A stretch of 59,963 bases of DNA, the filler included, from Isurus oxyrinchus (taxonomy: Eukaryota): the NCBI GenBank assembly GCA_026770705.1. It is 2 parts of 2 records of this genome, joined end to end, with 100 filler letters (N's around TTAATTAATTAA, not from the genome) between each part and the next. Parts side by side here need not be neighbours in the genome. Positions count along the whole stretch, not along the records: positions 29,670 to 59,963 come from JANJGN010001343.1; 1 more part is not named here. One strand, written 5' to 3'. The notes under the pieces were generated by a model. The model had not been told where the DNA came from and made no database searches. It saw only the letters and a list, made by a program, of their open reading frames with translations. Below are positions 15,701 through 59,963 of the stretch, one piece after another; within the stretch, counting starts at the first letter, position 1, and every line of letters begins with the position of its first letter. Position numbers and translations under genes: made by a program.

Positions 15701-18405
15701 TAGAGCTGTCTTGTCAATGAGTGACTGAAGTGTACAGCTGTCTTGTCAATGAGTGACTGAAGGGTAGAGCTGTCTTGTCCATGAGTGACTGAAGGGTAGA
15801 GCTGTCTTGTCAATGAGTGACTGAAGGGTAGAGCTGTCTTGTCAATGAGTGACTGAAGGGTAGAGCTGTCTTGTGAATCAGTGACTGAAGGGTAGAGATA
15901 TCTTGTCAATGAGTGACTGAAGGGTAGAGCTGTCTTGTCAATGAGTGACTGTAGGGTAGAGCTGTCTTGTCAATGAGTGACTGAAGGGTAGAGCTGTCTT
16001 GTCAATGAGTAACTGAAGGGTAGTGCTGTCTTGTCAATGAGTGACTGAAAGGTAGAGCTGTCTTGTCAATCAGTGACTGAAGGGTAGAGCTGTCTTGTCA
16101 ATGAGTGACTGAAGGGTAGATCTGTCTTGTCAATGAGTGACTGAAGGGTAGAGCTGTCTTGTCAATGAGTGACTGAAGGGTAGTGCTGTCTTGTCAATGA
16201 GTGACTGAAGGGTAGAGCTGTCTTGTCAATCAGTGACTGAAGGGTAGAGCTGTCTTGTCAATGAGTGACTGAAGGGTAGAACTGTCTTGTCAATGAGTGA
16301 CTGAAGGGTAGAGCTGTCTTGTCAATGAGTGACTGAAGGGTAGAGATGTCTTTTCAATGAGTGACTGAAGGGTAAAGCTGTCTTGTCAATGAGTGACTGA
16401 AGGGTAGAGCTGTCTTTTCAATGAGTGACTGAAGGGTAGATCTGTCTTGTCAATGAGTGACTGAAGGGTAGAGCTGTCGTGTCAATGAGTGACTGAAGGG
16501 TAGTGCTGTCTTGTCAATGAGTGACTGAAGGGTAGAGCTGTCTTGTCAATGAGTGACTTAAGGGTAGAGCTGTCTTGTCAATGAGTGACTGAAGGGTAGA
16601 CCTCTCTTGTCAATGAGTGACTGAAGGGTAGAGCTGTCTTGTCAATGAATGACTGAAGGGTAGAACTGTCTTGTCAATGAGTGACTGAAGGGTAGACCTG
16701 TCTTGTCAATGAGTGAATGAAGGGTAGAGCTGTCTTGTCAATCAGTGACTGAAGGGTAGAGTTGTGTTGTCAATGAGTGACTGAATGGTAGAGCTGTCTT
16801 GTCAATGAGTGACTGAAGGGTAGAGGTGTCTTGTCAATGAGTGACTGAAGGGTAGATCTGTCTTGTCAATGAGTGACTGAAGGGTAGAGCTGTCTTGTCA
16901 ATGAGTGACTGAAGGGTAGAGCTGTCTTGTCAATGAGTGACTGAAGGGTAGAGCTGTCTTGTCAATGAGTGACTGAAGGGTAGAGCTGTCTTGTCAATGA
17001 GTGACTGAAGGGTAGAGCTGTCTTGTCAATGAGTGACTGAAGGGTAGAGCTGTCTTGTCATTGAGTGACTGAATGGTAGAGCTGTCTTGTCAATGAGTGA
17101 CTGAAGGGTAGAGCTGTCTTGTGAATGAGTGACTGAAGGGTAGAGCTGTCTTGTCCATTAGTGACTGAAGGGTAGAACTGTCTTGTCAATGAGTGACTGA
17201 AGGGTAGAGCTTTCTTGTCAATGAGTGACTGAAGGGTAGAGCTGTCTTGTCAATGAGTGACTGAAGGGTAGAGCTGTCTTGTCAATGAGTGACTGAAGGG
17301 TAGACCTCTCTTGTCAATGAGTGACTGAAGTGTAGACCTGTCTTGTCAATGAGTGACTGAATGGTAGATGTGTCTTGTCAATGAGTGACTGAAGGGTAGA
17401 GCTGTCTTGTCAATGAGTGACTGAAGGGTAGAGCTCTCTTGTCAATGAGTGACTGAAGGGTACATCTGGCTTGTCAATGAGTGACTGAAGGGTAGAGCTC
17501 TCTTGTCAATGAGTGACTGAAGGGTAGATCTGCTTGTCAATGAGTGACTGAAGGGTAGAGCTGTCTTGTCAATGAGTGACTGAAGGGTAGAGCTGTCTTG
17601 TCAATGAGTGACTGAAGGGTAGTGCTGTCTTGTCAATGAGTGACTGAAGGGTAGAGCTGTCTTGTCAATGAGTGACTGAAGGGTAGAGCTGTCTTGTCAA
17701 TGAGTGACTGAAGGGTAGAGCTGTCTTGTCAATGAGTGACTGAAGGGTAGAGCTGTCTTGTCAATGAGTGACTGAAGGGTAGAGCTGTCTTGTCAATGAG
17801 TGACTGAAGGGTAGAGCTGTCTTGTCATTGAGTGACTGAATGGTAGAGCTGTCTTGTCAATGAGTGACTGAAGGGTAGAGCTGTCTTGTGAATGAGTGAC
17901 TGAAGGGTAGAGCTGTCTTGTCCATTAGTGACTGAAGGGTAGAACTGTCTTGTCAATGAGTGAGTGAAGGGTAGAGCTTTCTTGTCAATGAGTGACTGAA
18001 GGGTAGAGCTGTCTTGTCAATGAGTGACTGAAGGGTAGAGCTGTCTTGTCAATGAGTGACTGAAGGGTAGACCTCTCTTGTCAATGAGTGACTGAAGGGT
18101 AGACCTGTCTTGTCAATGAGTGACTGAATGGTAGATGTGTCTTGTCAATGAGTGACTGAAGGGTAGAGCTGTCTTGTCAATGAGTGACTGAAGGGTAGAG
18201 CTCTCTTGTCAATGAGTGACTGAAGGGTACATCTGGCTTGTCAATGAGTGACTGAAGGGTAGAGCTCTCTTGTCAATGAGTGACTGAAGGGTAGATCTGC
18301 TTGTCAATGAGTGACTGAAGGGTAGAGCTGTCTTGTCAATGAGTGACTGAAGGGTAGAGCTGTCTTGTCAATGAGTGACTGAAGGGTAGAGCTCTCTTGT
18401 CAGTC
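12781..18405. repeat. 32-bp minisatellite, about 175 copies (TCTTGTCAATGAGTGACTGAAGGGTAGAGCTG)
   Basis: Head-to-tail units with scattered substitutions and no unique spacers. Confidence 0.97.
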
Positions 18406-19469: not shown

Positions 19470-22400
19470 TGGAAACTCCATGTGTCACTACTGAACTCTC
19501 CATGTGTCACTACTGAACTCTCCATGTGTCACTACTGAACTCTCTATGTTTCACTACTGAAATCTCCATGTGTCACTACTGAACTCTCCATGTGTCACTA
19601 CTGAACTCTCCATGTGTCACTACTGGAAACTCCATGTATCACTACTGAACTCTCCATGTGTCACTACTGAACTCTCTATGTTTCACTACTGAAATCTCCA
19701 TGTGTCACTACTGGACACTCCATGTGTCACTACTGAACTCTCCATGTGTCACTACTGGAAACTCCTAGTATCACTACTGAACTCTCCATGTGTCACTATT
19801 GAACTCTCCATGTGTCACTACTGAACTCTCCATGTGTCACTACTGGACACTCCATGTGACACTACTGAACTCTCCACGTGTCACTACTGAACTCTCCATG
19901 TGTCACTATTGAACTCCCCATGTGTCACTACTGAACTCTCCATGTATCACTACTGAACTCTCCATGTGTCACTATTCAACTCTCCATGTGTCACTACTGA
20001 ACTCTCCATGTGTCACGACTGAACTCTCCATGTGTCACTACTGAACTCTCCATGTGTCACTACTGGACACTCCATGTGTCACTACTGGACACTCCATCTG
20101 TCACTACTGAACTCTCCATGTGTCACTACTGAACTCTCCATGTGTCACTACAGAACTCTCCATGTGTCACAACTGGACACTCCATGTGTCACTACTGAAC
20201 TCTCCATGTGTCACTACTGAACTCTCCATGTGTCACTACTGAACTCTCCATGTGTCACTACTTGACACTCCATGTGTCACTACTGAACTCTCCATGTGTC
20301 ACTACTGGACACTCCTTGTGTCACTACTGAACTCTCCATGTGTCACTACTCGACACTCCATGTATCACTACTGAACGCTCCATGTGTCACTACTGGACAC
20401 TCCATGTGTCACGACTGGACACTCCATGTGTCACTACTGAACTCTCCATGTGTCACTACTGGACATTCCATGTGTCACTAATGAACTCTCCATGTGTCAC
20501 TACTGGACACTCCACGTGTCACTACTAGACACTCCATGTGTCACTACTGGACATTCCATGAGTCACTACTGAACTCTCCATGTGTCACTACTGAACTCTC
20601 CATGTGTCACTACTGGACACTCCATGTGTCACTACTAGATACTCCATGTGTCACTACAGGACACTCCATGTGTCACTACTGGACATTCCATGTGTCACTA
20701 CTGAACTCTCCATGTGTCACTACTGAACTCTCCATGTGTCACTACTCGACACTAAATGTGTCACTACTGAACTCTCCATGTATTGCTACTGAACTCTCCA
20801 TGTGTCACTACTGAACTCTCCATGTGTCACTACTGGACACTCCATGTGTCACAACTGAACTCTCCATGTGTCACTACTGAACTCTCCAGGTGTCACTACT
20901 CGACACTCCATGTGTCACTACTGAACCCTCCATGTGTCACTACTGAACTCTCCACGTGTCACTACTGGACACTCCATGTGTCACTACTGAACTCCCCATG
21001 TGTCACTACTCGACACTCCATGTGTCACTACTGAACTCTCCATGTGTCACTACTGAACTCTACATGTGTCACTACTGAACTCTCCATGTGTCACTACTGA
21101 ACTCTCCATGTGTCACTACTGGACACACTATGTGTCACTGCTGAACTCTCCATGTGTCACTACTGAACTCTCCATGTGTCACTACTGGACACTCCATGTG
21201 TCACTACTCGACACTCCATGTGTCACTACTGAACCCTCCATGTGTCATTACTGGACACTCCATCTGTCACTACTGAACTCTCCATGTGTCACTACTGGAC
21301 ACTCCATGTGTCACTACTGGACACTCCATGTGTCAGTACTGGACACTCCATGTGTCACAACTGGACACTCCATCTGTCACTACTGAACTCTCCATGGGTC
21401 ACTACTGAACTCTCCATGTGTCACTACTGGCAACTCCATGTGTCACTACTGGACACTACATGTGTCACTACTGGACACTCCATGTGTCACTACTGAACTC
21501 TCCATGTGTCTCTACTCGACACTCCATGTATCACTACTGAACGCTCCATGTGTCACTACCGGACATTCCATGTGTCACTACTGGGCACTCCATGTGTCAC
21601 TACTGAACTCTCCATGTGTCACTACTGGACACTCCATGTGTCACTAACGGACACTCCATGTGTCACTACCGGACATTCCATGTGTCACTACTGGACACTC
21701 CACGTGTCACTACTAGACACTCCACGTGTCACTACTGGACACTCCACGTGTCACTACTGGACTCTCCATGTGTCACTACTGAACTCTCCATGTGTCACTA
21801 CTGGACACTCCATGTCACTACTGAACTCTCCATGCGTCACTACTCGACAATCCATGTATCACTACAGAACGCTCCATGTGTCACTACTGGACAATCCATG
21901 TGTCACTACTGAACTCTCCATGTGTCACTACTGGACATTCAATGTGTCACTACTGAACTCTCCATGTGTCACTACTGGACACTCCATGTGTCACAACTGG
22001 ACACTCCATCTGTCACTACTGAACTCTCCATGTGTCACTACTGAACTCTCCATGTGTCACTACTGGCAACTCCATGTGTCACTACTGGACACTACATGTG
22101 TCACTACTGGACACTCCATGTGTCACTACTGAACTCTCCATGTGTCAGTACTGGACGCTCCATCTGTCACTACTGAACTCTCCATGTGTCTCTACTCGAC
22201 ACTCCATGTATCACTACTGAACGCTCCATGTGTCACTACCGGACATTCCATGTGTCACTACTGGGCACTCCATGTGTCACTACTGAACTCTCCATGTGTC
22301 ACTACTGGACACTCCATGTGTCACTAACGGACACTCCATGTGTCACTACCGGACATTCCATGTGTCACTACTGGACACTCCACGTGTCACTACTAGACAC

Positions 22401-23228
22401 TCCACGTGTCACTACTGAACTCTCCATGTGTCGCTACTGGACACTCTATGTGTCACTACTGAACTCTCCATGTGTCACTACTGGACTCTACATGTGTCAA
22501 TACTCGACACTCCATGTCTCACTACTCGACACTCCATGTGTCACTACTGAACTCTCCATGTGTCACTACTGGACACTCCATGTCACTACTGAACTCTCCA
22601 TGTGTCACTACTCGACAATCCATGTATCACTACAGAACGCTCCATGTGTCACTACTGGACAATCCATGTGTCACTACTGAACTCTCCATGTGTCACTACT
22701 GGACATTCAATGTGTCACTACTGAACTCTCCATGTGTCACTACTGGACACTCCATGTGTCACTACTGGACACTCAACGTGTCACTACGAGACACTCCATG
22801 TGTCACTGCTGGACATTCCATGTGTCACTACTGAACTCTCCATGTGTCACTACTGAACTCTCCATGTATTGCTACTGAACTCTCCATGTGTCACTATTGA
22901 ACTCTCCATGTGTCACTACTGAACTCTCCATGTATCACTACTGGACACTCCATGTGTCACTACTGAACGCTCGATGTGTCACGACTGAACTCTCCATGTG
23001 TCACTACTGGACACTCCATGTGTCACTACTGAACTCTCCATGTGTCACTACTGGACACTGCATGTGCCACTACTGGACACTCCATGTGTCACTACTGGAC
23101 ACTCCATTTGTCACTACTGAACTCTCCATGTGTCACTACTGAACTCTCCATGTGTCACTACTGGACACTCCATGTGTCACTACGCGACACTCCATGTGTC
23201 ACTACTGGACACTCCATGTGTCACTATT
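19470..23228. repeat. 22-bp minisatellite, about 170 copies (CCATGTGTCACTACTG[AACTCT/GACACT])
   Basis: Tandem units with two interspersed main variants, inside the predicted leader-V intron. Confidence 0.97.
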
Positions 23229-24977: not shown

Positions 24978-27792
24978 GAGATATCGGACTTGGGATGTCA
25001 ACCTGGAATTGACAATCTAATTAGATATCACACTTGGGATGTCAACCTGGAATTGACAATCTAATTAGATATCAGACTTGGGATGTCAACCTGGAATTGA
25101 CAATCTAATGGGATATCAGACTTGGGATGTCAACCCGGAATTGACAATCTAATTAGATATCAAATTTGGGATGTCAACCTGGAATTGACAATCTAATTAG
25201 AAATCAAACTTGGGATGTCAACCTAGAACTGACAATCTAATTAGATATCAAACTTGGGATGTCAACCTGGAATTGACAATCTAATTAGATATCAAACTTG
25301 GGATGTCAACCTAGAACTGACAATCTAATTAGATATCAAACTTGGGATGTCAACCTGGAATTGACAATCTAATTAGATATCAGACTAGGGATGCCAACCT
25401 GGAATTGACAATCTAATTAGATATCAAACTTGGGATGTCAACCTGGAATTGACAACCTAATTAGATATCAAACTTGGGATGTCAACCTGGAATTGACAAT
25501 CTAATTAGATATCAAACTTGGGATGTCAACCTGGAATTGACAATCTAATTAGATATCAGACTTGGGATGTCAACCTGGAATTGACAATCTAATTAGATAT
25601 CAAACTTGGGATGTCAACCTGGAATTGACAATCTAATTAGATATCAGACTTGGGATGTCAACCTGGAATTGATAATCTAATTAGATATCAGATTTGGGAT
25701 GTCAACCTGGAATTGACAATCTAATTAGATATCAGACTTGGGATGTCAACCTGGAATTGACAATCTAATTAGATATCAAACTTGGGATGTCAACCTGGAA
25801 TTGACAATCTAATTAGATATCAGACTAGGGATGCCAACCTGGAATTGACAATTTAATTAGATAACAGAATTGGGATGTCAACCTGGAATTGACAATCTAA
25901 TTAGATATCAGATTTGGGATGTCAACCTGGAATTGACAATCTCATTAGATATCAGACTTGGGATGTCAACCTGGAATTGACAATCTAATTAGATATCAGA
26001 CTTGGGATGTCAACCTGGAATTGACAATCTAATTAGATATCAAACTTGGGATGTCAACCTAGAACTGACAATCTAATTAGATATCAAACTTGGGATGCCA
26101 ACCTGGAATTGACAATCTAATTAGATATCAAACTTGGGATGTCAACCTGGAATTGACAACCTAATTAGATATCAAACTTGGGATGTCAACCTGGAATTGA
26201 CAATCTAATTAGATATCAGACTTGGGATGTCAACCTGGAATTGACAATCTAATTAGATATCAGACTTGGGATGTCAACCTGGAATTGACAATCTAATTAG
26301 ATATCAAACTTGGGATGTCAACCTGGAATTGACAATCTAATTAGATATCAGACTTGGGATGTCAACCTGGAATTGACAATCTAATTAGATATCAAACTTG
26401 GGATGTCAACCTGGAATTGACAATCTAATTAGATATCAAGCTTGGGATGTCAACCTGAAATTGACAATCTAATTAGATATCAGACTTGGGATGTCAACCT
26501 GGAATTGACAATCTAATTAGATATCAGACTTGGGATGTCAACCTGGAATTGATAATCTAATTAGATATCAGACTTGGGATGTCAACCTGGAATTGATAAT
26601 CTAATTAGATATCAGATTTGGGATGTCAACCTGGAATTGTCAATCTAATTAGATATCAGACTTGGGATGTCAACCTGGAATTGACAATCTAATTAGATAT
26701 CAGTTTTGGGATGTCAACCTGGAATTGACAATCTAATTAGATATCAAACTTGGGATGTCAACCTGGAATTGACAATCTAATTAGATATCAAACTTGGGAT
26801 GTCAACCTGGAATTGACAATCTAATTAGATATCAAATTTGGGATGTCAACCTGGAATTGACAATCTAATTAGATATCACACTTGGGATGTCAACCTGGAA
26901 TTGACAATCTAATTAGATATCAAACTTGGGATGTCAACCTGGAATTGACAGTCTAATTAGATATCAGACTTGGGATGTCAACTTGGAATTGACAATCTAA
27001 TTAGATATCAGATTTGGGATGTCAACCTGGTATTGACAATCTAATTAGATATCAAACTTGGGATGTCAACCTGGAATTGACAATCTAATTAGATATCAGA
27101 CTTGGGATGTCAACCTGGAATTGACAATCTAATTAGATATCAGACTAGGGATGCCAACCTGGAATTGACAATTTAATTAGATATCAGACCTGGGATGTCA
27201 ACCTGGAATTGACAATCTAATTAGATATCAGATTTGGGATGTCAACCTGGAATTGACAATCTAATTAGATATCAAACTTGGGATGTCAACCTGGAATTGA
27301 CAATCTAATTAGATATCAAACTTGGGATGTCAACCTGGAATTGACAATCTAATTAGATATCAGACTTGGGATGTCAACCTGGAATTGACAATCTAATTAG
27401 ATATCAAACTTGGGATGTCAACCTGGAATTGACAATCTAATTAGATATCACGCTTGGGATGTCAACCTGGAATTGACAATCTAATCAGATATCAAGCTTG
27501 GGAACTCAACCTGGAATTGACAATCTAATTAGATATCAGACTTGGGATGTCAACTTGGAATTGACAATCTAATTAGATATCAGACTTGGGATGTCAACCT
27601 GGAATTGACAATCTAATTAGATATCAGACTTGGGATGTCAACCTGGAATTGACAATCTAATTAGATATCAGACTTGGGATGTCAACCTGGAATTGACAAT
27701 CTAATTAGATATCAGACTTGGGATTCCAACCTGGAATTGACAATCTAATTAGATATCAGACTTAGGATGTCAACCTGGAATTGACAATCTAA
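24978..27792. repeat. 44-bp minisatellite, about 64 copies (GGGATGTCAACCTGGAATTGACAATCTAATTAGATATCAGACTT)
   Basis: Highly homogeneous tandem units with internal palindromes. Confidence 0.97.
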
Positions 27793-28957: not shown

Positions 28958-29258
28958 ACACTTGCAGGAGCGCCTCCTTACCCAGTGGGGGGTCCGGCTG
29001 TCTGTTGTACAGGGGCAGACGGCGGAGATGCACTGTTACCAGAACGACACTGAGCATATCAACATGTACTGGTACCGTCAGCACCCCGGGGCAGGGCTGC
29101 AGCTCATGGTCACCTCGGTGGGTACCTCAGAGCCCAGGCCTGAAGAGGGGTTCAAGGAGAGGTTTGAAGTGACGAGACACAACACCAAGTGGTGCAGCCT
29201 GAAAATACTGAGCGTGGAGCTGACTGACCCTGCGGTTAGTTCCTGCGCTGCTGGTGAA
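28958..29258 (+). pseudogene. TRBV: TCR V-beta-like segment 2, probable pseudogene
   Basis: V framework TQW, AEMHC, MYWYRQHPGAGLQLM, EEGFKERFEVTR, SLKI, DPAVSSCAAG. A phase-1 reading from the CTCAG acceptor (28957) is out of frame with the V body, YxC has become SSC, and the RSS is degenerate (CACAGGG at 29259-29265, poor nonamer). Confidence 0.75.
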
Positions 29259-29569
29259 CACAGGGAATGAGAGCTGCTCCCGGGCTGGATCAGGAACAGA
29301 CTCACCTCTGGTCCTGTCAGACTCAAGTACAGGAAACTCCAGTCAGCTGCACTGGTAAAAGTCACCAGATCATTGATGAAGGGTGTCCGATTTCCCACAA
29401 GATTGTGACTGGCTAGAACAATGTCTCAGCTTCTCAACAGTTCGGAACCCCAAACTCAGCACCTCCCAGAGCGGAGGGAATTAGCTCGAGTGAAAGGTGA
29501 AGGTTAACACGGGGACAGTGTTCAGTTCAAACTGCTTCATATCCCTTCTCAGTAATTCCATTCCCTCAA

Positions 29570-29669
29570 NNNNNNNNNNNNNNNNNNNNNNNNNNNNNNN
29601 NNNNNNNNNNNNNTTAATTAATTAANNNNNNNNNNNNNNNNNNNNNNNNNNNNNNNNNNNNNNNNNNNN
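29570..29669. other. Artificial scaffold-joining spacer (44 N + TTAATTAATTAA + 44 N)
   Basis: Exactly 100 bp, symmetrical, with a six-frame stop linker at 29614-29625. Confidence 0.95.
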
Positions 29670-32150: not shown

Positions 32151-32393
32151 CTGTTGGATAGCAGGCTTGTGCACAAACAGGGTCCTGAGGACCATGAGCC
32201 AATGTAGAATGACCTTGTCAACTCCTGTGTCCAGGATTCCCTTCCATCCGTTGTGAAACCTTGGGGAGTTCCATGTGTGTCCTGTAGATGGTCCACACTG
32301 CAGCCACTGTGCCCCAGTGATGGAGGGAGTGGATATCGAGTCTAGTGGATCTACAAATTATCCAGATTTAAATATTGATATTTCTCTCCCCAG

Positions 32394-32762
32394 TTGGACT
32401 GTCACAAGAATGGGAAAGTAACACTCCACGAGAGGTGACAGCGCAGGAAGGTTCATGTGTACAGATTCCATGTCATTACAATTACCCATCACATTTGTTA
32501 GAGAAAACACGTGTCGGAATCTGGAATATGAGGAGGGACAAATGGAATACATTGTCTACAGCCTTTCACTCCAAGGATCACAGTCACGAGTTACCACGGT
32601 TCCACCATCGGACCCGGCTGTCTGGAGACCTGAAAGATGGTGACTGTTCCCTGATTATAAACAACATCAGACGGGGAGATACAGGATTTTTTTTTTTCAG
32701 AATAGAATTTGACAATGGTCGGAGCCACAACTATTATCCTGTAACCCAGCTTCACGTTTCTG
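32394..32762 (+). CDS. Siglec/MAG-like receptor, V-set exon A
   Basis: AG/GT-bounded, 369 nt, phase 1-1. Siglec V-set signature CVQIPC, GDCSL and the F-strand essential Arg (FFRIE). Confidence 0.88.
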
Positions 32763-33114
32763 GTAAGTGCTATGTTATAATTACTCAACAATTCACATTC
32801 AACACTCAATGGGAAATAACACAAACTGTGATGTTTACATATTAACACAAAACACAGCTTATTTTAACACATTGTCTGATTCTCAATAACCTGGTGATGG
32901 CTTCCAGTTCAGTCCTAAAGCAACGTCTAATACTCACTTTAATATCAATGATGATGAACATTAACTGTATTATCAGGTTACCACTCCCATCAATCTCTCC
33001 TGTCCTGTTTAAAAGTCTGACGTATCGATAAAAGAAAGATGTGCATTTCTGCAGCGCAATTTACCACCTCCCTATTACAGTAATCTCCTCCTTTATCTTC
33101 ATCCACGGCAACAT

Positions 33115-34070
33115 TCCCTATCTCAGGAGCCTCCTCCAGTCCCTACAACCCTCTCTATCTCAGGAGCCTCCTCCAGTCCCTACAACCCTCCCTATCTCAG
33201 GAGCCTCCTCCAGTCCCTACAACCCTCCCTATCTCAGGAGACTCCTCCAGTCCCTACAACCCTCCTATCTCAGTACTCTCTTCCAATCCCGAAAACCATT
33301 CCTATCACTGCAAACTCCTCCGGACCCAACACCCCTCCCTATCTCTTTAACCTCCTCAAGCCCCAATAACCCTCGCGATATTTGTTGCCTCCTCCAGTCC
33401 TAACAACCTCCCCTATCTCTGCAACCTCCTCCAGACCGAATACCTCTCCCTATCTCTGTAAGCTGGTCCATCTCTTACAACCCTTCATATTTCTGTAACC
33501 TCCTCCAGCCCACTACAACCCTCCCTATCTCTGTAACCTCCTCCAGTCCCTAAGAGTTTCCTTTATCTCTGTAACCTCCTCCAGCCATTATAACCCTCCC
33601 TATCTCTGTAGCCTCCCTCAGCCCCAGCCACACTCCATATCTATGTAACCTCGTCCTGCCCTTACAACCCTCCCTATCTCTGTAACCCCATCCTGCCCCA
33701 AAAACTCCCCCATCTCTGTAAACTCCTCCAGTCCCTGCAACCTTCCCTACCTCTGAAACCTCCACCAGCCTTTCCAAGCCTCCCTACCTCTGCAATCCGT
33801 CCAGCCCCTACAACTCTTCCTACCCCTGTAAACTCCTCCAGACCCTAAAACCCTCTCTGCCCTTGCAGCCTCCTCCAGTCCCTACACGCTCCCCATCTCC
33901 ATAAACTCCTCAAATCCCTACAGCCCTCCCTATCTCTGCAACCTCCTCCAGGTCCTACCACCCTCCCTCTCTGCGTAACCTCCTCCAGTATCTACAGCCC
34001 TCCCTATCTCTGTTACCTCCTACAGCCCCCACAAACCTCCCTATCAGTGTAACCTCCTCCAGCCCCTGAT
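33115..34070. repeat. Degenerate 37-bp tandem repeat (CTCCCTATCTCTGTAACCTCCTCCAGTCCCTACAACC)
   Basis: Direct inspection. A reverse-complement array lies at 44960-45260. Confidence 0.85.
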
Positions 34071-34139
34071 GGAAGGTGGGTCGAGCGGGTCAGTCACTTG
34101 CATGTTTATTCTGCAGCTTTAATATTTTAAGATGGTATG

Positions 34140-34930
34140 AATGTAGGAACATAAGAAATAGGGACAGGAGCAGGCCATTCGGCCCCTCAAGCCTGCTCTC
34201 ACTGATCTGGTTGTGGCCTTAACTCCATTCTCCTGCCTGTCCCCCAAACCCTTGACTCCCTTGTCGATCAAAAACCTGCCTCACTCAGCCTTGAGTCTAT
34301 TCAATGGCCCAGCCTCCACTGCTCTCTGGGGAAGAGAATTCCACAGGCTAGCGCCCCTCTGAGAGAGGAAATTCCTCCTCATCTCAGTCTTAAATGGGAG
34401 AGGCCTCATTCCGAAACTGTGCTCCCTGGTTCTAGATTCCCCCACGAGGGGGAAACATCCTCCCAGCATCCACCCTGTCAAGCCCCCTCGGAATCGGATA
34501 TGTTTCAATAAGGTCACCCCTCATTCTTCTAAACTCCAATGGATACAGGCCCAACCTGCTCAACATTTCCTCACAGGACAAACCCTTTAATCCCAGGAAT
34601 CAGCCCAGTGAAGCTTCTCTGAACTGCCTGTACACAATGATCCTGTTACAATCTCACTAACGCCCTGTGCAGCTGTTGCAAGACTTCCCTCCTTTTATAC
34701 TCCATCCCTTTGCAATAAAGGCCAACATTCCACTTGCCTTCCTCATTCCGTGGTGTTCCTGAATGCTGACTTTCTGTGATTCATGTACAAGGACACCCAG
34801 ATCCCTCTGTACTGCATTCTGCATCCTGTCTCCATTTAAATAATATCCTGTTTTTCTATTCTTCCTGCCAAAATAATTTGTTGCCATTCTCCTCAGTATT
34901 GACCATCCCCCCAATTCAGCCTCATCAGTA
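34140..34930 (-). mobile_element. CR1 LINE 3' fragment
   Basis: FKTEMRRNFLSQRGASLWNSLPQRAVEA and VQRDLGVLVHESQKV are CR1 ORF2 C-terminal motifs. Confidence 0.85.
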
Positions 34931-34992
34931 AATTTTGAGTCTAGTGGATCCACAAACCATCCAGAGTTAAATATTGATATTTCTCTCCCCAG

Positions 34993-35361
34993 CTGAACCC
35001 TCACAAGAGTGGAAAGGTGACACTCCACGAGAGGTGACAGCGCAGGAAGATTCGTGTGTACTGATTCCGTGTCATTACAGTTATCCATCGTGTCTGGAAA
35101 ACCAACCGCGAGGTGGAGTCTGGTTTAATAATGAGGAACAGATTTCCTGGGCTCCCATTGCCTTTTACTCCAAGGATCACAGTCACGAGTTACCACGGTT
35201 CCGCCATCGGACCCGGCTGTCTGGAGACCTGAAAGATGGCGACTGTTCCCTGATTATAAACAACATCAGACGGGAAGATGCAGGACCTTATTTTTTCAGA
35301 ATAGAATTTGACAATGGTCCGAGCCATAACTATTACCCTGTAACCCAGCTTCACGTTTCTG
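34993..35361 (+). CDS. Siglec/MAG-like receptor, V-set exon B
   Basis: 369 nt, phase 1-1, with CVLIPC, GDCSL and DAGPYFFRIE. Tandem duplicate of exon A at an offset of 2599 bp. Confidence 0.9.
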
Positions 35362-36174
35362 GTAAGTGCTGTGTTATAATTACTCAACAATTCACATTCA
35401 ACACTCAATGGGAAATAACGCAAACTGTGACGTTTACATATTAACACAAAACACAGCTTATTATAACACGCTGTCTGATTCTCAATAACCTGCTAATAGC
35501 TTCCAGTTCAGTCCTAAAACAACCTCTAATAATCACTTTAATATCAATGATTAAATGTATTGACTGTGTCCATCAATGTTATCAGGTTATCCACTTACAT
35601 CAATCTCCCTAATCCTGTTTAAAATTCTTACATATCAACAAATGAAAGATTTGCATTTCTATAGCGCCTTTCAACACCTCTGGACGTCGCAAATGGATTC
35701 ACAACCATTGAAATAATTCTTGAAATGTAACCCTTGTTGTAATATAGGAAACACAGCAGCCAATTTGTGCACAGGAAGCTCCCAGAAACAGCAATGTGAT
35801 CAATAACCTGATCATCTGCTTTAGATGCCAGTTCAGTGATTGGTTCAAATGGATTCTCTCCTGGTGGCGACAGGATAGAATTTAAATCTGGCAGATTTCA
35901 GAGAAAGTAACAAGCCAGTGTGTCAGGAACTGTGAGCTGCTCCCCCGCCCTCACCTGGGATTGTCAATTCAATTGTCTCAAAGTGGAAGTGAATTCATCT
36001 GAGAGACAGAAATTCCACTAAGTCTGAAAATAGGAAATTCTCTCCTGATCATTGTAACCTCTCAGATCTGATATCATCCTTGTAAAATTGCTTTCTCTTG
36101 TTGGACTGTGATTTCTATTTGAACTGATGCTTCATGTTATATTTCTCTAAAAGGATCCATTCTCTGTCTGTTAG

Positions 36175-36471
36175 ATTTCACAGATAAACCCATGATATTC
36201 CCTGCTGAAATTATTGCAGGAAAGCGTGTGGATGTAAGCTGCACCTTCAACACAACGTGCAATGGAACAGCAGCACCTGTCTTAACCTGGGACACTCCCA
36301 CTGACGTACCTGGATCAGTCTCAAACACTGTAACTCAGCATGGTGTCACTCTGACCTATACTTCTGTTCTGACCCTGATCCCATCACTCAAACACCACGG
36401 ACACACTCTCAGCTGCAGAGTGAGATATCCATCTGTTTCATCGGAGCAGACCCTTATGCTAACTGTAAAAT
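36175..36471 (+). CDS. Siglec-like receptor, domain-2 C2-set exon
   Basis: TTAG/GTAAGT-bounded, 297 nt. DFTDKP..VSCTFNTTC..PVLTW..SVLTLIPSLKHHGHTLSCRV, including the extra Cys for the Siglec D1-D2 disulfide. Confidence 0.9.
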
Positions 36472-41015: not shown

Positions 41016-41297
41016 ATGCACCACGGAATCTCTCAATCAATTCTCTTGATATGATTAACGCTTCATGGATCAATATAATTGAGGGGAATTCTGCAGTGAT
41101 AATCTGCTCTGTCGAGAGCTTCCCAGCTTCTAACCTGACGTGGCGACATCTTAATGTCCCACTGATCAGAACAAGTTCCAACGATGAGCTGTGGCTGGTG
41201 ATTCCTCACGTTACATCCAAGGACACTGGAAACTATCAGTGTGTGGCAGAGAATGAACATGGAGCAGTGGAGGGATTCATAAACATCACTGTGGAAT
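41016..41297 (+). CDS. Siglec-like receptor, C2-set exon 3a
   Basis: TTTAG/GTGAGT-bounded, 282 nt, phase 1-1. YAPRNLSI..IICSVESFPASNLTW..DTGNYQCVAENEHG. Confidence 0.88.
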
Positions 41298-41319
41298 GTG
41301 AGTTAATGCAAACTTCAAC

Positions 41320-41359
<40 letters not shown>

Positions 41360-42184
41360 CACACACAAACACACATACACACACACGTGTCAGCTCCCTC
41401 TCCTCTCTCAGTGCTGCACTCGAGTCTCGGTAGCAGCTCTGATTCTGTGTTGAAGGAAGGTAAACTCCAGATCATCAAGACACTGAATTGGACGAGCAAC
41501 CTCCTGAACAGTGAATTGTAGGTTTATCACCCAATACCCCATTATTCCAAAGCAATTCCTCCATGGTGAAATCTCCGTGAACATCCTGATCATGTGAAAG
41601 ACACTTTCTTTTCTTCTAGCCCGACAGTGTCTCCTCTGGTGGAAGGCTGTAATTACAGCGTGACAGTTTACATATCCACACGCAGCAAGAGCTGAGCAAC
41701 ACTCAGCTTGGGCTGAGAAATGACAAGTAATGTTCACACCACACAAGCACCAGGCAGTGATCATCTCCAACAAGAGAGAATCTAACCATCTCCCCTTGAT
41801 GTTCAATCACTTTCCCATCGCTGAATCCCCCATGATCAACATCCTGGGGGATGTTAACCAAACACCGAACTGGACCGGCCATAAATACTGTGGCTACAGG
41901 AGCCGGTCAGAGGCTGGGAATTCTGTGGGTGTGAAAAACTCACCACCACCTCCTCAAGGGCAATTAGGGATGGGTAATAAATGCTGGTCTAGATAGATAC
42001 ATCCACTTCCCATGAATATGCAAAAAGGAACACACTGGCAGTGTCTGTTACAAATGGTGACATAGAAAATCATAATGGAGAAAGAAGCCTTGACATGCAC
42101 ATAGACACCAGATGGAGAGAGATGATACCTGGAGTCTTGCTGTGCACTGTGTTTGCTCACAATGAAACCTTTATTTGTATTTAG

Positions 42185-42466
42185 ATGCACCACGGAACCT
42201 ATCAATTACTTCTCTTGATATGATTAACGCTTCATCCATCAACATAATTGAGGGGAATTCTGCAGTGATAATCTGCTCTGTCGAGAGCTTCCCAGCTTCT
42301 AACCTGACGTGGCGACATCTTAATGTCCCAATGAACAGAACAAGTTCCAACAATGAGCTGTGGTTGGTGATTCCTCACGTTACATCCAGGGACACTGGAG
42401 ACTATCAGTGTGTGGCAGAGAATGAACATGGAGCAGTGGAGGGGTTCATAACCATCACTGTGGAAT
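42185..42466 (+). CDS. Siglec-like receptor, C2-set exon 3b (duplicate of 3a)
   Basis: 282 nt, phase 1-1, near-identical to 3a (DTGDYQCVAENEHG). Confidence 0.88.
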
Positions 42467-44335: not shown

Positions 44336-44611
44336 ATTCCCCACAGGAGACGATGGTGTCCATCAGCAGATCCTCAGGTGGGATAAGAGAGGGAAGCAAT
44401 ATCACATTAACCTGCTCCAGTGAAAGTGTCCCACCGATATCTCATTACACCTGGTTCAGGATCGAGGGGAACACCAGCACCCAGTTAAACACAAGTAGCC
44501 GCACTCTCTCCTTCACTCCTGTAACACGGGAGAATGATGCAGGTTTCTACTGCACAGCGAGGAACCCAATGGGTAACAGCACCTCCAACATCACCCACCT
44601 GAACGTACAAT
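44336..44611 (+). CDS. Siglec-like receptor, C2-set exon 4
   Basis: TCCAG/GTAAGC-bounded, 276 nt. IREGSNITLTCSSESVPPISHYTWF..DAGFYCTARNPMG. Confidence 0.9.
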
Positions 44612-45567: not shown

Positions 45568-45861
45568 ATAAGCCGGAGATTTCCCAGCAGTCAGAGTGCA
45601 CTCGGAGGTCAGAGGGGGTCACCTGCATCTGTGTGGCCAACTCCAACCCACCCGGAGACCTCACCTGGCACCTGCCCAGTGCCAACATCAGTGCTAACCA
45701 AACACACGGAGGTTTTGTGTCGTGGCAGGTCAGAGATGGGCATCTGGTGACTGGTTCCCTCACCCTGATGAGACCCCAGGATGAGGGGGGAGTGATTGCA
45801 TCCTGCTCGGTTCAAAACCCACATGGGGAAGCCATGTTCAAGATGTATCTGTGGGTCAAAG
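45568..45861 (+). CDS. Siglec-like receptor, membrane-proximal Ig exon (MAG domain-5-like)
   Basis: CTCAG/GTGAAA-bounded, 294 nt. SECTRRSEGVTCICVANSNPPGDLTWHLPSANIS shows the C..CxC..SNP pattern of MAG and CD33-related proximal domains. Confidence 0.88.
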
Positions 45862-46782: not shown

Positions 46783-46879
46783 GTAGAGACTCCAGTAAAT
46801 GGACAGTAGGATTGTTCACGGCTGGGATCATGTTGAGTGTTTTCCTGGCTGGAATCTTCATCTTCATCTGTGTGAGAAA
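46783..46879 (+). CDS. Siglec-like receptor, transmembrane exon
   Basis: TTTTACAG/GTAAGT-bounded, phase 1-2. GRDSSKWTVGLFTAGIMLSVFLAGIFIFICVRK has no charged TM residue. Absent from the ORF track. Confidence 0.88.
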
Positions 46880-46999
46880 GTAAGTCTGAAGATTTAACTT
46901 GATTTTAATATAAACATTTGTTTAGGATTAATTGGACAGTTTTTACAAAGGGCCAGCACAGGCACGATGGGCTGAGTGGCTCCCTCCTGAGCTGTGAGA

Positions 47000-47470
47000 T
47001 TTTAAATTCTTTCATCGAATGTGACTGTCACTGGCGTGGCCAATACTAATTGCCCATTCCCTAAATGCCCCTTGAGAATGAGGTGGTGAGCTGCCTTCTT
47101 GAACCACTGCAGTCCATGTGGTGTAGGTACACCCACAGTGCTGTTAGAGAGGGAGCTCCAGGATTTTGACCCAGCGACAGTGAAGGAACGGTGATATATT
47201 TCCAAGTCAGGATGGTGAGTGACTTAGAGGGGAACTTCCAGGTGGTGGTGTTCCCATGTGTCTGCTGCCCTTGTCCTTCTAGATGGTAGAGGTCGTGGGT
47301 TTGGAAGGTGCTGTTGAAGGAGCCTTGCTGAGTTGCTGCAGTGCATCTTGTATATGTTACACACACTGCTGCCACTGTGTGTTCATGGTGGAGGGAGTGA
47401 ATGTTTAATGTGGTGGATGGGGTGTAGATCAATCGGGCTGCTTTGTCCTGGATGGTGTCGAGCTTCTTAA
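47000..47470 (-). mobile_element. LINE 3' end (duplicated at about 49470-49935)
   Basis: Reverse complement of the 53750-54180 family. Confidence 0.8.
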
Positions 47471-47602
47471 TTCTGTGCTTTGTGCAGAAGTGATTTAAAG
47501 AGACAGTCCAGTCGTTGGTGTAAGGTTACAGTGGGCACTGTGTCTGTGCTGCACTGACTCTCTGCTATGTGATAACCACAGTGTGATATTGTGTTATTGC
47601 AG

Positions 47603-47684
47603 GAGGAAGACAGCGATGGAGGAGAGAGTTTCAGGGACCAGTGACATTGCATTGACCCCCAGTCCACTCTCTGTGAAGCACCAG
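47603..47684 (+). CDS. Cytoplasmic tail A, exon 1
   Basis: TTGCAG/GTACAG-bounded, 82 nt, phase 2-0 matching the TM exon. RKTAMEERVSGTSDIALTPSPLSVKHQ. Confidence 0.8.
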
Positions 47685-48670
47685 GTACAGGAGCTGTTTA
47701 CACTCACTCCAAAGCTTCAATCTCAGTGTGTAGACAACACATGTCCCAGATTCCCTGCCCAGTTACCCACTGATTTGTACCTGTGGAGTCAGCAATGGTT
47801 CAGTATCATGCTGTCTCTCTGTTATGACACAGCAACTGGTAAAGGCTGTTGTTTAAAAACCCAGAGGGAAACTTTAAACAACTGTCATAACCTATATTTC
47901 CCAGTGGAATGTTTGAGATGCATCTCTAAATTCAGGAATAAGACCACCAGTTCTCGAGATGGGTTTATATCAAACTAAATGAGACATATATTAATTTACA
48001 CAAGTTAAACATATGCACATGGTTACAAACTAGTATTATCATAACTTTTTAACAAATTCTCAAACTAATCTCCTCTAAGACAACCCATAGTCTTTAAGCA
48101 GATTCCAGGCATTTTCACCTCACAAATTCCAGTTTCTCTCTCTATCTCAACCTCCCTTTCTTTCTCTCTCTTTCTCTCTCTCTCATCCTCTCTCTGATTA
48201 CAAGGTTCATGTTATTGAGCCTCACGTCAGGCACCTGTGTGCAGAATCCAAGCCGTCACTCACCAGAGCCATTACCGATTGAGTGCGAGACTGACAGAGG
48301 GTCAGTACTGAGGGAGCGCTGCACCATCGGAGGGTCAGTACTGAGGGAGCGCTGCACTGTCAGAGGGTCAGTACTGAGGTTTTTGCTGCGCTGTCGGAGG
48401 GTCAGTACTGAGGGAGTGCGAGACTGACAGAGGGTCAGTACTGAGGGAGTGCGAGACTGACAGAGGGTCACTATTGAGGATGTGCTGCACTGTTGGAGGG
48501 TCAGTCCTGAGGGAGCACTGCACTGCCATAGGTGGTTTCTTTCATAAGACATGGGAGAGAGAGTTAAACCCACTGAGACACGACTGACATTAACGAAGCT
48601 GCACAATAATTTAACCCTATCAGTGCCAGTAAATAATGTGAGGATGTCTTCTGTTTCCATTTCTCTGTAG

Positions 48671-48919
48671 GGTAAACAGAACGTGCTGATTACTGAGCCC
48701 CGGAACACAACCAGAGACACAACTAGTGAGGGGGAGACCCCAGCTCCCCGGGGTCTCTCTGAAGATGCAGTGGGAGGCGATGCTGGACTTGGGAACCCCG
48801 GCAAACCTGAAGAGTTTCTCTACGCCAATCCCCAAGTTTTGAGGGTGTCCAGTGATGATGGGTCTGTCCACAGGGAAGAGGAGACGGAATACGCACAGAT
48901 CAGGTTTGAGCATAACTGA
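48671..48919 (+). CDS. Cytoplasmic tail A, terminal exon (FLYANP degenerate ITIM, distal TEYAQI)
   Basis: CTGTAG acceptor, phase 0, open to TGA. Confidence 0.8.
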   Translation, partial: GKQNVLITEPRNTTRDTTSEGETPAPRGLSEDAVGGDAGLGNPGKPEEFLYANPQVLRVSSDDGSVHREEETEYAQIRFEHN

Positions 48920-49445
48920 ATGAGAAATGGGGAGTGGGAGTGAGGAGATGTGGGTGTGCGGGTAGGGATTGAGATCCCTGGGAACAGGAAACAACCCACT
49001 GGGGGAGAGGGGGAGAGAGGGAGGAAGGGATGGAATTGGGCTGCGGTTGGTGTGGTTTGGAATGAAATGCTTCTCCAGAGAGGACTGGATGCTGAGCCAT
49101 TGAGGAGTGAGATTCACTGTCTCTCTCTCTCTCTCTCTCTCTTCCTCTCTGTCTCTCTCTTTCTTTCTGTGTCAGTCTCTCATTCTCTATCTCTTGCTCC
49201 TCCTTTAAGATGACCCTTAATGACTGACTTTGTTGACTCAGCTGTTGGTCTCCTGTCCCTAATATCTCCTCATGTGCCTCAGAGTCAGGTGAAATGTGAC
49301 TAACAATCCCCGGATGAGCCTTGGGACATTTTGCTACATTGAAGGTGCTATATAAATGCAAGTTGTTGCAGTAACTCTGATCTGCTTCGATTAACAATGG
49401 AACCACAGAGGTTCCTTCGACAGGGCGTGTGTGCAGCAGGGTCAC

Positions 49446-49451: not shown

Positions 49452-50068
49452 TACATTGAGCTGTGAGATTTTTAATTCTTACATCGAATGTGGCTGTCAC
49501 TGGTGATGTCCGCATTGATGCCAATCTCTAACTGCCCTTGAGAAGGTGGTGGTGAGCTACCTTCTTCACCCGCTGCAGTGCATGTGGTGTAGGTACACCC
49601 ACAGTGCTGTTAGAGAGGGAATTCCAGGATGTTAACCCAGCGACAGTGAAGGAATGGTGATATATTTCCAAGTCAGGATGGTGAGTGACTTGGAGGGGAA
49701 CTTCCAGGTGGTGGTGTTCCCATGTGTCTGCTGTCCTTGTCCTTCTGGATGGTAGAGGTCGCGTATTTGGAAGGTGCTGTTGAAGGAGCCTTGCTGAGTT
49801 GCTGCAGTGCATCTTGTAGATGGTACACACACTGCTGCCACTGTGTGTTCATGGTGGAGGGAGTGAATGTTTAATGTGGTGGATGTGGTATGGATCAATC
49901 GGGCTGCTTTGTCCTGGATGGTGTCGAGCGTCTTGATTCTGTGCTTTGTGCAGAGGTGATTTAAAGAGAGAGTCCAGTCATTGGTGTAAGGTTACAGTGG
50001 GCTCTGTGTCTGTGCTGCACTGACTCTCTGCTATATGATAACCACAGTGTGATATTTTGTTATTGCAG

Positions 50069-50150
50069 GAGAAAGACAGCGATGGAGGAGAGAGTTTCAG
50101 GGACCAGTGACATTGCATTGACCCCCAGGTCACTCTCTGTGAAGCACCAG
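50069..50150 (+). CDS. Cytoplasmic tail B, exon 1
   Basis: 82 nt, phase 2-0. RKTAMEERVSGTSDIALTPRSLSVKHQ. Confidence 0.8.
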
Positions 50151-50285
50151 GTACAGGAGCTGTTTACACTCACTCCAAAGCTTCAATCTCAGTGTGTAGA
50201 CAACATATGTCCCAGATTCCCAGCCCAGTTACCCACTGATTTGTACCTGTGGAGTCAGCAATGGTTCAGTATCATGCTGTCTCTC

Positions 50286-51218
50286 TGTTATGACACAGCA
50301 ACTGGTAAAGGCTGTTGCTTAAAATCCCAGAGGGAAACTTTAAACAGCTGTCGTAACCTATATTTCGCAGTGGAATGTTTGAGATGCATCTCTAAATTCA
50401 GGAATAAGACCACCAGTTCTCAAGATGATTTTATATCAATCTAAATGAGACATTTATTAATTTTCACAAGTTAAACATATGCACATGGCTACAAACTAGT
50501 ATTATCATAACTTTATAACAAATTCTCAAACTAATCTCCTCCAAGACAACCCATAGACTTTAAGCAGACACCAGGCAAAGCATTTTCACCTCACAAATTC
50601 CAAATGAGGTTCCTTTCACTTTGGTTCCTTTGCAGACAGGTGTAGGCTTACAGCTGCTTTGATGTTACAAGCCTCTGCTCTGCACACACAAAACTGCTCA
50701 AGTTATACCCAGCTCTTGAGTGTGAAGAAGATGGAGATTGATGGGCTCTTGATTGGTCAGGGGATCAATGGTTAGGAGAGAAGGTGGGAGAATGGGGTTT
50801 GTGAAACATATCAGCCATGTATGAATGGTGGAGCAGACTCGATGGACCGAATGGTCTAATTTCTCCTCCTATGTCTTATGGTCTTATGGCTTCTGTTTGA
50901 AGGTAAATTCGCAATGTATCATCAGGACCTTTGAACTCCATCTCTTCCAATAATAAATCCTCTTTCATCGTATCAATTTTATTAGTAATATAAACGTTGA
51001 TTGGTTTAACATTTCACTCTCAGACTTTGAATGTTTTATTTAAAAATGCAAATTACCACTTTACCTCTTTGTTTACATCTCAAAACTACTATACATCAAA
51101 GCACACAGACTGGCTGGCTTTAATCCAATTAAAATACACACAGACACACACACAGACTAAACCTCTGTTTAAATAGACAGTTTGCAATTGCAATACAAAC
51201 ATTAATAGATTAATAACA
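50286..51218. mobile_element. Solo LTR-like element with nested CR1 tail (about 50715-50890)
   Basis: TGTTAT...ATAACA inverted termini, flanked by CTCTC and CTCTG (imperfect TSD). Confidence 0.65.
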
Positions 51219-51646
51219 CTCTGTCTCTATCCCTCCTCTATCCCTCTCTCTCATCCTCTCTCTGATTACAAGGTTCATGTTATTGAGCCTCACACCAGGC
51301 ACCTGAGCGCAGAATCCAAGCCGTCACTCACCAGAGCCATTACCGAGGGAGTGCGGGACTGACAGCGGGTCAGTACTGAAGGAGTGCTGCACTGTTGGAG
51401 GGTCAGTACTGAGGGAGTGCTGCACTGACAGAGGGTCAGTACTGAGGGAGCGCTGTATTGTCGGAGGGTCAGCACTGAGGGAGTGCTGCACTGTTGGAAG
51501 CTCAGTACTGAGGGAGTGCTGCACTGCCATAGGTGGTGTCTTTTTTCCGATAGGAGAGAGAGAATTAAACAAGTCTGCACAATAATTTAACCCTATCAGT
51601 ACCAGTAAATGATGTGAGGATGTTTTCTGTTTCTATTTCTCTGTAG

Positions 51647-51895
51647 GGTAAACAGAACGTGCTGATTACTGAGGCCCGGAACACAACCAGAGACACAACT
51701 AGCGAGGGGGAGACCCCAGCTCCCCGGGGTCTCTCTGAAGGTGCAGTGGGAGGCGATGTTGGACATGGGAACCCCGACAAACCAGACGAGCTTTTCTACG
51801 CCAACATCAACTTTTCAAAGCTGCCCGGCGGTGACAGGACTGTGCACAGGAGCGAGGAAACGGAATACGCACAGATCAGGTTCCAGAAAAACTGA
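51647..51895 (+). CDS. Cytoplasmic tail B, terminal exon (ITIM LFYANI plus ITSM-like TEYAQI)
   Basis: CTGTAG acceptor, phase 0. Shows the two-tyrosine arrangement of CD33-related Siglecs. Confidence 0.85.
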   Translation, partial: GKQNVLITEARNTTRDTTSEGETPAPRGLSEGAVGGDVGHGNPDKPDELFYANINFSKLPGGDRTVHRSEETEYAQIRFQKN

Positions 51896-52087
51896 GTGTG
51901 AAACAGGGAGCGGGGCTGTGGGGTGTGTGCAGCCAACATGGTCAAATAGTAATGAACAGAAATATGATGTTGCTCAACTTTTTTTATTGTTTCTGAGTGA
52001 GCTTTCTGAATGCTGCACCTTTTTCCATGCTGTAAAAGATTGTGAGAAGCTTATGAATTATGTATAATGTTACATCTGTTAATACAA

Positions 52088-55239: not shown

Positions 55240-55665
55240 TAGTCACTGGGGTCAGTCCTGGACCCCGCACCTCAGGGAGGGGATATTGTCCTCGGAGGGG
55301 CTGCAGCCCAGAGTCACCAGAACGATCCCGGGGCTGAAAGGGTTAAATCCCGAGGACAGGTTGCACAGACCAGGCTTGTGTTCCCTCGAGTCTCGAAGAT
55401 TAAGGGGTGATCTAATCGAGGGGTTTAAGATGATTAAAGGATTCGATGGGGTCGATAGAGAGAAACTATTTCCCCTGGTGGTGGGGGTGAGGTGAGGGGG
55501 TGGGGGTGGGGGGTGGGGGTGGGGGTGAGGTGAGGGGGGTGAGGGTGGGGGTGGGGGGTAGGGGGTGGGGGTGTAGGGGTGGGGGGGTCCAGAACAAGGG
55601 GGCAGAACATTAAAATTGGAGCCAGGCCGTTCAGGGGGTGTCAGGAAGCACTTCTTCACACAAAG
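55240..55665 (+). mobile_element. CR1 LINE 3' fragment
   Basis: SLESRRLRGDLIEGFKMIKGFDGVDREKLFPLV. Confidence 0.8.
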
Positions 55666-58600: not shown

Positions 58601-59963
58601 GGATGATGAGGGGATGAGGAGGGGATGAGGAGGGAGATGAGGAGGGGATGAGGAGGGGATGAGGAGGGGATGAGGAGGGGGATGAGGAGGGAGATGAGGA
58701 GGGGATGAGGAGGGGATGAGGAGGGGGATGAGGAGGGAGATGAGGAGGAGGATGAGAAGGGGATAAGGAGGGGGATGAGGAGGGGATGAGGAGGGAGATG
58801 AGGAGGGGGATGAGGAGAGGGATAGGGAGGGGGATGAGGAGGGGATGAGGAGGGAGATGAGGAGGAGGATGAGGAGGGAGATGAAGAGAAGAATGAGGAG
58901 GGCATGAGGAGGGGGATGAGGAGGAAGATGAGGAAGAGGATGAGGAGGGGATGAGGAGGGGGATGAGGAGGGAGATGAGGAGGAGGATGAGAAGTGGATG
59001 AGGAGGGGGATGAAAAGGGGATGACGAGGGGAAGAGGAGGGGGATGAGGAGGGAGATGAGGAGGGGATGAGCATGAGGAGGGGGGATGAGGAGGGGGATG
59101 AGGAGGGGGAAGAGGAGGAGGAAGAGGAAGGAGATGAGGAGGTAGATGAGTGGGGATGAGGAGGAGAATGAGGAGGGGAATGAGGAGGGGGATGAGGAGG
59201 GGGAAGAGGAGAGAGATGAGAGGGGGAAGCGGAGGGGATGATGAGGGGATGAAGAGGAGGATGAGGAGGGGAATGAGGAGGGGGATGAGGAGCGAGATGA
59301 GGAGGGGGACGAGGAGGGGGGGAGGTGAAGGGGGATGAGGAGGGGAATGAGGAAGGGAGAGAGGGTGAGGAGGGAGATGAGAGGAGGATGAGGAGGAGAT
59401 GAGGAGGGGATGAGGGAGGGAGATGAGGAGGAGGATGAGGAGGGAAGAGGAGGGGATGAGGAGGGAGATGAGGAGGAGGATGAGGAGGGGATGAGGAGGG
59501 AGATGAGGAGGAGGATGAGGAGGGGATGAGGATGAGGGAGATGAGGATGAGAAGGGGATGAGGAGGGGGATGAGGAGGATGATGAGGAGGATGAGGAGAG
59601 GATGAGGAGGGGATGAGGAGGAGGGATGAGGAAGGATATGAGGAGGGATGAGGAGGGATGAGGATGGGGATGAGGAGGATGAGGAGGTGATGAGGAGGGG
59701 ATGAGGAGGAGGGGGATGAGGAGAGGGAGATGGGAGGGGATGAGGAGGGAGGATGAGGAGGGGATGAGGAGGGAGAGAGGAGGGGATGAGGAGAGGGATG
59801 GGAGGAGGGATGAGGAGGGGATGAGGAGAGGGGATGAGGGGAGGGAGGGATGAGGAGGGGATGAGGAGGGAGATGAGGAGGAGAGGGATGAGGAGGGGAT
59901 GAGGAGGGGGATGAGGAGGGGATGAGGAGGAGATGAGAGGGTAGATGAGGAGGGGGAGGGGAG
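55666..59963. repeat. Purine-rich simple satellite, approximately (GATGAGGAGGGG)n
   Basis: Direct inspection. It runs to the window end and the long minus-strand ORFs are artefacts. Confidence 0.96.

Follow-up and report, generated by a model that had tools for sequence, protein, structure and literature searches.

Exons A and B of the Isurus oxyrinchus sequence analysed here probably encode the first- and the inner-type V domains of a tandem-V, Siglec-like shark receptor, in which a 23-residue patch of each domain would be old, the rest of the two exons would have been evened out by gene conversion, and a cysteine bond is predicted to join the two domains. Both exons lie in a stretch of 59,963 nucleotides (the window), and the features of the receptor gene are collected in Table 1. 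Conversion among the V exons of the family would account for the similarity, and in its latest round an inner-type tract would have replaced the A sequence from about position 32561 into the intron; selection would remove the tracts that cross the patch, because the patch holds a position-specific cysteine and the loops that choose the glycan in mammalian Siglecs. Cys21 of A would then pair with Cys33 of B, in the manner of the V-set/C2 cysteine pair of CD33, and Cys21 of B with the first C2 domain. The receptor would be inhibitory and would present two Arg sites that differ in their loops, basic at the outer site and acidic at the inner one, probably with different glycan preferences.

Table 1. 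Features of the Siglec-like receptor gene, in positions of the whole window.
Feature	Position	Strand	Remarks
V-set exon A	32394..32762	+	First-type V domain; Cys 21, 26, 84; F-strand Arg
A patch	32492..32560	+	Basic, with B-C loop, C strand and C-C' loop; 21/23 as Carcharodon P0014 V1
Likely conversion tract	32561..32951	+	Exon A 3' half and intron; differs from the B copy at 23 of 391 nt
37-bp minisatellite	33115..34067		In the A-B intron
V-set exon B	34993..35361	+	Inner-type V domain; Cys 21, 26, 33, 84; F-strand Arg
Extra B-C loop Cys codon of B (Cys33)	35091..35093	+	Predicted partner of A Cys21 (putative pairing)
B patch	35091..35159	+	Acidic; 21/23 as Carcharodon P0021 V2 and Cetorhinus P0001 V7
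First C2-set exon	36175..36471	+	Siglec D2 extra Cys
Ig exon C2a	41016..41297	+	267/282 identical to C2b
Ig exon C2b	42185..42466	+	
Ig exon C2c	44336..44611	+	
Membrane-proximal Ig exon	45568..45861	+	
Transmembrane exon	46783..46879	+	Hydrophobic run without charged residue
Cytoplasmic exon 1, copy a	47603..47684	+	
Terminal exon, copy a	48671..48919	+	FLYANP, TEYAQI
Cytoplasmic exon 1, copy b	50069..50150	+	
Terminal exon, copy b	51647..51895	+	LFYANI, TEYAQI

The original prediction, made from the sequence alone, described A and B as twin Siglec-type V-sets that diverge mainly between the B-C and the C-C' loops, and this description was borne out throughout. Both exons are 369 nt long, with AG/GT ends, phase 1-1 and open reading frames, and 88 of their 122 residues are identical. 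The two 23-residue segments translate as had been given and share four residues, while the last 65 residues agree at 58 positions; the A segment is indeed basic (five K/R and two D/E) and the B segment acidic (one K/R and three D/E), and the FRIE motif with the essential Arg is present in both domains. Among the 66 differences found in 366 coding nucleotides, 41 fall inside the 69-nt patch, and when the differences were shuffled 20,000 times the best 69-nt window never held more than 27, so that the observed clustering beats all 20,000 shuffles and divergence is clearly non-uniform. The downstream introns, also said to be nearly identical, match at 97/100 positions, then at 79/88 and at 97/116 aligned columns. 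On the 5' side 52 of 56 intron positions are identical and the sequence further upstream is unrelated; the aligned block coincides with the duplicated block that had been proposed (32338-33070 versus 34937-35680). An assembly artefact was ruled out, as no gap separates A from B and relatives show the same order.

Several lines of evidence place the gene among the Siglecs. A and B both score above the Pfam cut-off for V-set and Ig_CD22, the exons that follow match C2/Ig families, and the best PDB sequence matches are Siglec-5, Siglec-7, CD33 and MAG. The FRIE of A and B aligns with the FRVE/FRME of Siglec-5 and -7, that is, with the strand-F Arg, and the V-set cysteine trio and its partner in the first C2 domain align with those of CD33, the bonds being predicted from that alignment; the strand-G aromatic is a looser case, with NYY only loosely aligned with the YSY of Siglec-5 and CD33. 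An AlphaFold model of the V-V-C2 portion of Carcharodon P0018 (11 rows, pLDDT 68, pTM 0.48) found its best fold match in CD33. Judged by these sequence criteria, the gene encodes a Siglec-like receptor. Its V domains share the Arg and the cysteine layout with the ectodomains of CD33, Siglec-5, Siglec-7 and MAG, which have one V domain and no inner V domain with a D2-like cysteine, whereas the shark receptor has both kinds of V domain. A search for longer proteins with B returned 108 matches, of which all 107 named ones come from sharks and rays, the closest being Carcharodon (94%) and Cetorhinus (91%), so that the source is likely lamniform. At least two V hits occur in 34 of the 108 homologues, from 14 species (some of them fused or non-adjacent), shark models carry two to seven, and the exon series of the gene described here also fits Rhincodon P0029 and Hemiscyllium P0028. 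These architectures are those of gene models, some of them evident fusions (P0001 starts with a tail), and the name 'lectin 12' used in the database is no more than a label.

Downstream of B the gene continues with five Ig exons, a transmembrane exon and a cytoplasmic part present in two copies, and in-silico splicing with either tail a or tail b yields an open frame of 864 codons. The cytoplasmic duplication spans 46988-48938 and 49457-51914, and each tail splices in frame and has TEYAQI at its end. Their proximal motifs differ, FLYANP in tail a versus an ITIM-like LFYANI in tail b, and a strict ITIM is absent from both under the usual ITIM and ITSM definitions. Two-tail models are also found in Carcharodon (P0027) and Cetorhinus (P0001), and the duplicated tails are possible alternative signalling tails. 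The C2a/C2b pair (41016-42466), whose upstream intron is identical in 119 of 146 columns, is evidently a third internal duplication within the gene.

No leader exon was found in the window by tblastn, by motif search or by a scan for hydrophobic ATG-donor segments, the last of which gave four weak candidates, none resembling the family leader. Gene models of relatives do contain a leader, and that of the present gene may sit on the far side of a gap (29570-29669) that lies 2.7 kb upstream of A. This gap consists of N44, TTAATTAATTAA and N44, where TTAATTAATTAA is a six-frame stop spacer of the kind typical of artificial joins, and linkage of the sequence upstream of it to the Siglec gene is unsure. 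That upstream sequence includes an antigen-receptor-like V segment at 28962-29270 (Pfam V-set; TCR chains among its PDB matches), followed by a heptamer-like CACAG; it carries SSC in place of the usual YYC, and it resembles a TCR V-beta pseudogene or orphon. A single-exon ORF of a rhodopsin-family GPCR (Pfam 7tm_1) lies at 6627-7649, and long tandem arrays occupy 12781-18402 (32 bp units), 19475-23226 (22 bp), 24979-27792 (44 bp) and 55664-59957 (12 bp).

The difference between the two patches is old and not recent, since the same two types are found at 21/23 in other lamniform sharks. The A patch agrees at 21/23 with Carcharodon P0014 V1 and in 15-17 residues with three Cetorhinus P0001 domains, against 4/23 with B, and the B patch reaches 21/23 with both Carcharodon P0021 V2 and Cetorhinus P0001 V7. 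Between A and B, pS is 0.70 and pN 0.57 in the patch (0.53 and 0.39 in its indel-free first 11 codons), and the 67 codons at the 3' end give a pS of 0.067 and a pN of 0.051. Diversifying selection after duplication, one of the two causes that had been put forward, does not fit with a pN at or below pS in the patch and with the retention of each type at 21/23 in other lamniforms. There is thus no sign of positive selection in the patch sequences, although with so few codons some selection may have acted.

The patch also carries the V position, to judge from trees of the full, unpicked set of 23 genes in which V1 and V2 are adjacent and complete. On these trees, built on 22-80 columns and weakly supported, the V1/V2 label needs seven changes when the patch is used with its Cys column removed (0/500 shuffles as low), 12 with the 5' part plus core (19-22/500) and 14 with the core alone (120-128/500), and the framework would carry the position much less. 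The contrast between patch and core is evidently a family-wide trait: in 310 of 325 lamniform pairs conservation is lower in the patch than in the core, and in 95 pairs the patch identity is 0.25 or lower.

The other cause that had been put forward was a gene-conversion patch. Recombination does appear to be involved, but in the reverse direction: the patch would be the old, retained part, and the 3' half of the exon with its intron the recently exchanged one. Differences between A and B amount to 19/154 in the 5' block versus 23/391 in the 3' block (p 0.019), with a pS of 0.28 in the 5' part. At its F-G/G end A is like B in 16/17 and like P0014 V1, its closest patch relative, in 10/17, and the four patch-by-FG combinations are all found among 28 lamniform domains (3, 4, 11 and 10). 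A tree of the 3' half (18 rows) groups A, together with two V1 rows of Carcharodon, with all nine V2 rows (99/96), and V1-V2 core identity within genes averages 0.76 versus 0.69-0.72 between species. The simplest reading is that an inner-type tract likely overwrote A over the interval given in Table 1. In the core, A and B agree at 44/50 residues, the same level as the mean of 0.87 for the lamniform family, so that the donor need not be B and any inner-type paralog could serve; purifying selection would account for part of this core identity.

The B patch opens with Cys33, seven residues past the B-strand cysteine. Among 137 distinct homologous domains, this extra cysteine was found in 34/45 inner, 0/74 first and 1/18 unclassified V domains, being absent from 11/45 inner domains, and it is seen in 11 named species of sharks and rays, two rays included. 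Since it is typical of inner V domains, the patch is likely in part structural and not about ligand choice. The comparison of cysteine and position over phylogenetically independent pairs was not significant (median p 1 and 0.25), and the extra cysteine may have a single origin. In the first C2 domain, a cysteine lies six residues past its B-strand cysteine (74 of the 78 proteins with the motif) and aligns with that of CD33; in Siglec-6, the V-set has been described as joined to the first C2 domain by a disulfide (PMC10122656). It is likely, from this layout, that Cys33 of B forms a V1-V2 disulfide with Cys21 of A and that Cys21 of B pairs with the first-C2 cysteine. Beyond sharks, a profile search was followed through the best 150 of 6506 matches, which gave 133 new proteins, eight of which carry V domains side by side (those of five frogs, one lungfish and one turtle, and a monkey Siglec-12). 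Within these best 150 of 6506 matches, read by eye, a B-C loop cysteine was found in 0/16 inner V domains of the eight non-shark tandem-V models. The tandem-V Siglec-like models of the five frogs, the turtle and the lungfish are P0138, P0142, P0153, P0191, P0226, P0207 and P0182, and, on these gene models, non-shark Siglecs with two V domains may include others besides Siglec-12.

Transcript evidence comes from relatives. A run search returned 24 runs, none recorded as RNA and with a best share of 0.43, and six were examined; they derive from other individuals or species, and their RNA nature is presumed. Joints from a V end to a V start are present in three of the six (X1, X3 and X6, from three studies), with a shorter side of 32, 38 and 21 letters, and the V-to-C2 joint across an 813-nt GT..AG intron in 4/4 runs. 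The whole A patch is covered by contigs in X1 (140 nt with 2 mismatches) and X3 (135 nt with 10), both with zero depth in the downstream intron, and is uncovered in X4 and X8. A leader-type loose end 5' of the exon occurs in X1 and X4, and no contig of the runs examined joins the A patch to a splice joint. Tandem V splicing is likely in the shark family on this presumed RNA of relatives.

It has also been considered how the basic loop of A might have arisen. Just after the conserved Trp, the M-R-R codons of A and the N-E-E codons of B (32525-32545, 35127-35143) share seven nucleotides out of frame. Read one base off, the A loop gives Y-E-E-G-Q-M, and the family has N-E-E-W-x-T/S-S loops one residue shorter than that of A; the M-R-R type is found in 7/139 rows, lamniform only. 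A 7-nt match arose in 293 and 243 of 20,000 shuffles within 5 nt of offset and in 838 and 659 at any offset, the out-of-frame match as judged by local alignment score in 971 and 621 of 20,000, and a synonymous-redraw null gave 795/20,000. For a pattern noticed post hoc, these values (p 0.012-0.05) are at most suggestive of a basic A loop derived from an acidic one via a 4-nt loss and a later 7-nt gain. A bolder reading joins these elements into a disulfide-stapled, two-headed Siglec whose heads differ only in their glycan-choosing loops while conversion levels the remainder, a dual-glycan sensor with an outer M-R-R loop that would come, in lamniform sharks, from a frame-shifted N-E-E between two compensating indels; as a whole it is possible and rather doubtful.

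Other histories of the two exons have to be weighed. A might be a duplicate of B that received nothing but its patch from a first-type paralog. This would suit the B-like 3' half and intron of A, and the donor type does exist in the family; it is nevertheless unlikely, as A has diverged further from B in its 5' part too (pS 0.28; p 0.019) and the order of first type, then inner type, is the rule in relatives. Given that diverged 5' part and that usual order, a single B-type overwrite of the 3' half of A is simpler. It could also be argued that conversion played no part, and that A and B are old duplicates kept alike by the slow pace of shark evolution and by purifying selection that acts on the framework, with the patch as a relaxed hypervariable segment without a ligand role. 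The lower conservation of the patch than of the core in 310/325 lamniform pairs, together with an AU test on the 3' half that does not reject V2 as a single clade (p 0.167), speaks for such a history, but purifying selection at the protein level fails to explain a 97/100 identical intron or a pS of 0.067 beside one of 0.70, and each patch type is conserved between species instead of drifting, which makes it quite improbable.

If one V exon had duplicated recently and its loops had then come under positive selection, flanks and intron might be expected to be 94-97% identical while 19/23 patch residues differ, and the first Ig domain of primate CD33-related Siglecs has been reported to evolve rapidly (PMC6288428). 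Silent sites of the patch have, however, diverged as much as its replacement sites and both patch types are already present at 21/23 in other species, so that this explanation is largely refuted and very improbable. Least probable of all is that A and B are alternative or orphan exons, with one V domain per transcript, or that A is a silent relic severed from its leader. The window is without a leader, retroelement-like sequence lies upstream of A and the A patch is tied to no joint by any contig, but both frames and their splice sites are intact, V-to-V joints occur in three studies, contigs of X1 and X3 span the A patch with no depth in the downstream intron, and a leader may be present on the other side of the gap at 29570-29669.

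It has been established in solved Siglecs that the C-C' loop, along with the G strand, determines glycan preference (PMC7765293, PMC10877568). Different preferences of A and B are plausible because their patches are basic versus acidic, both domains carry the Arg, and the two types are conserved between species. Lys stands in place of Arg in 4/23 V2 rows versus 1/23 V1 rows, and the inner Arg site could instead be part of a spacer. Siglec-12, a primate gene, resembles the shark receptor in its two tandem V-sets ahead of C2 domains, but both shark V domains retain the Arg, and the inner V domain of Rhinopithecus Siglec-12 (P0203) lacks the B-C loop cysteine; orthology of the two genes is unlikely. 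Siglec-12 has been described as the sole Siglec with two V-sets (PMC7876704). Gene conversion over the V-set exon has been reported for SIGLEC11/SIGLEC16 and SIGLEC5/SIGLEC14 (PMC5701461, PMC6288428, PMC13358205), where it acts between paired genes and keeps binding alike, whereas in the shark it would act between V exons of a tandem array with the loops apparently spared. In fact, the near-identical binding domains of a concerted evolution of the SIGLEC11/16 type are not seen here, the patch being identical at 4/23. The whale shark genome paper, as far as its available text goes, names Siglecs once and without detail (PMC8455134), and a search of literature listings that cover a minority of the subscription journals found no paper on shark tandem-V Siglecs.

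The variability of the loop is predicted by Siglec biology and is family-wide, which limits the surprise of the contrast between A and B. Nevertheless, Siglecs are described with one binding domain, Siglec-12 excepted. If the two V domains are indeed stapled and carry two differently looped Arg sites, the tandem-V Siglecs of elasmobranchs would be a natural test of dual glycan recognition, and the reading favoured here, if true, would also show conversion homogenising a scaffold and yet sparing the loop that sets its specificity.
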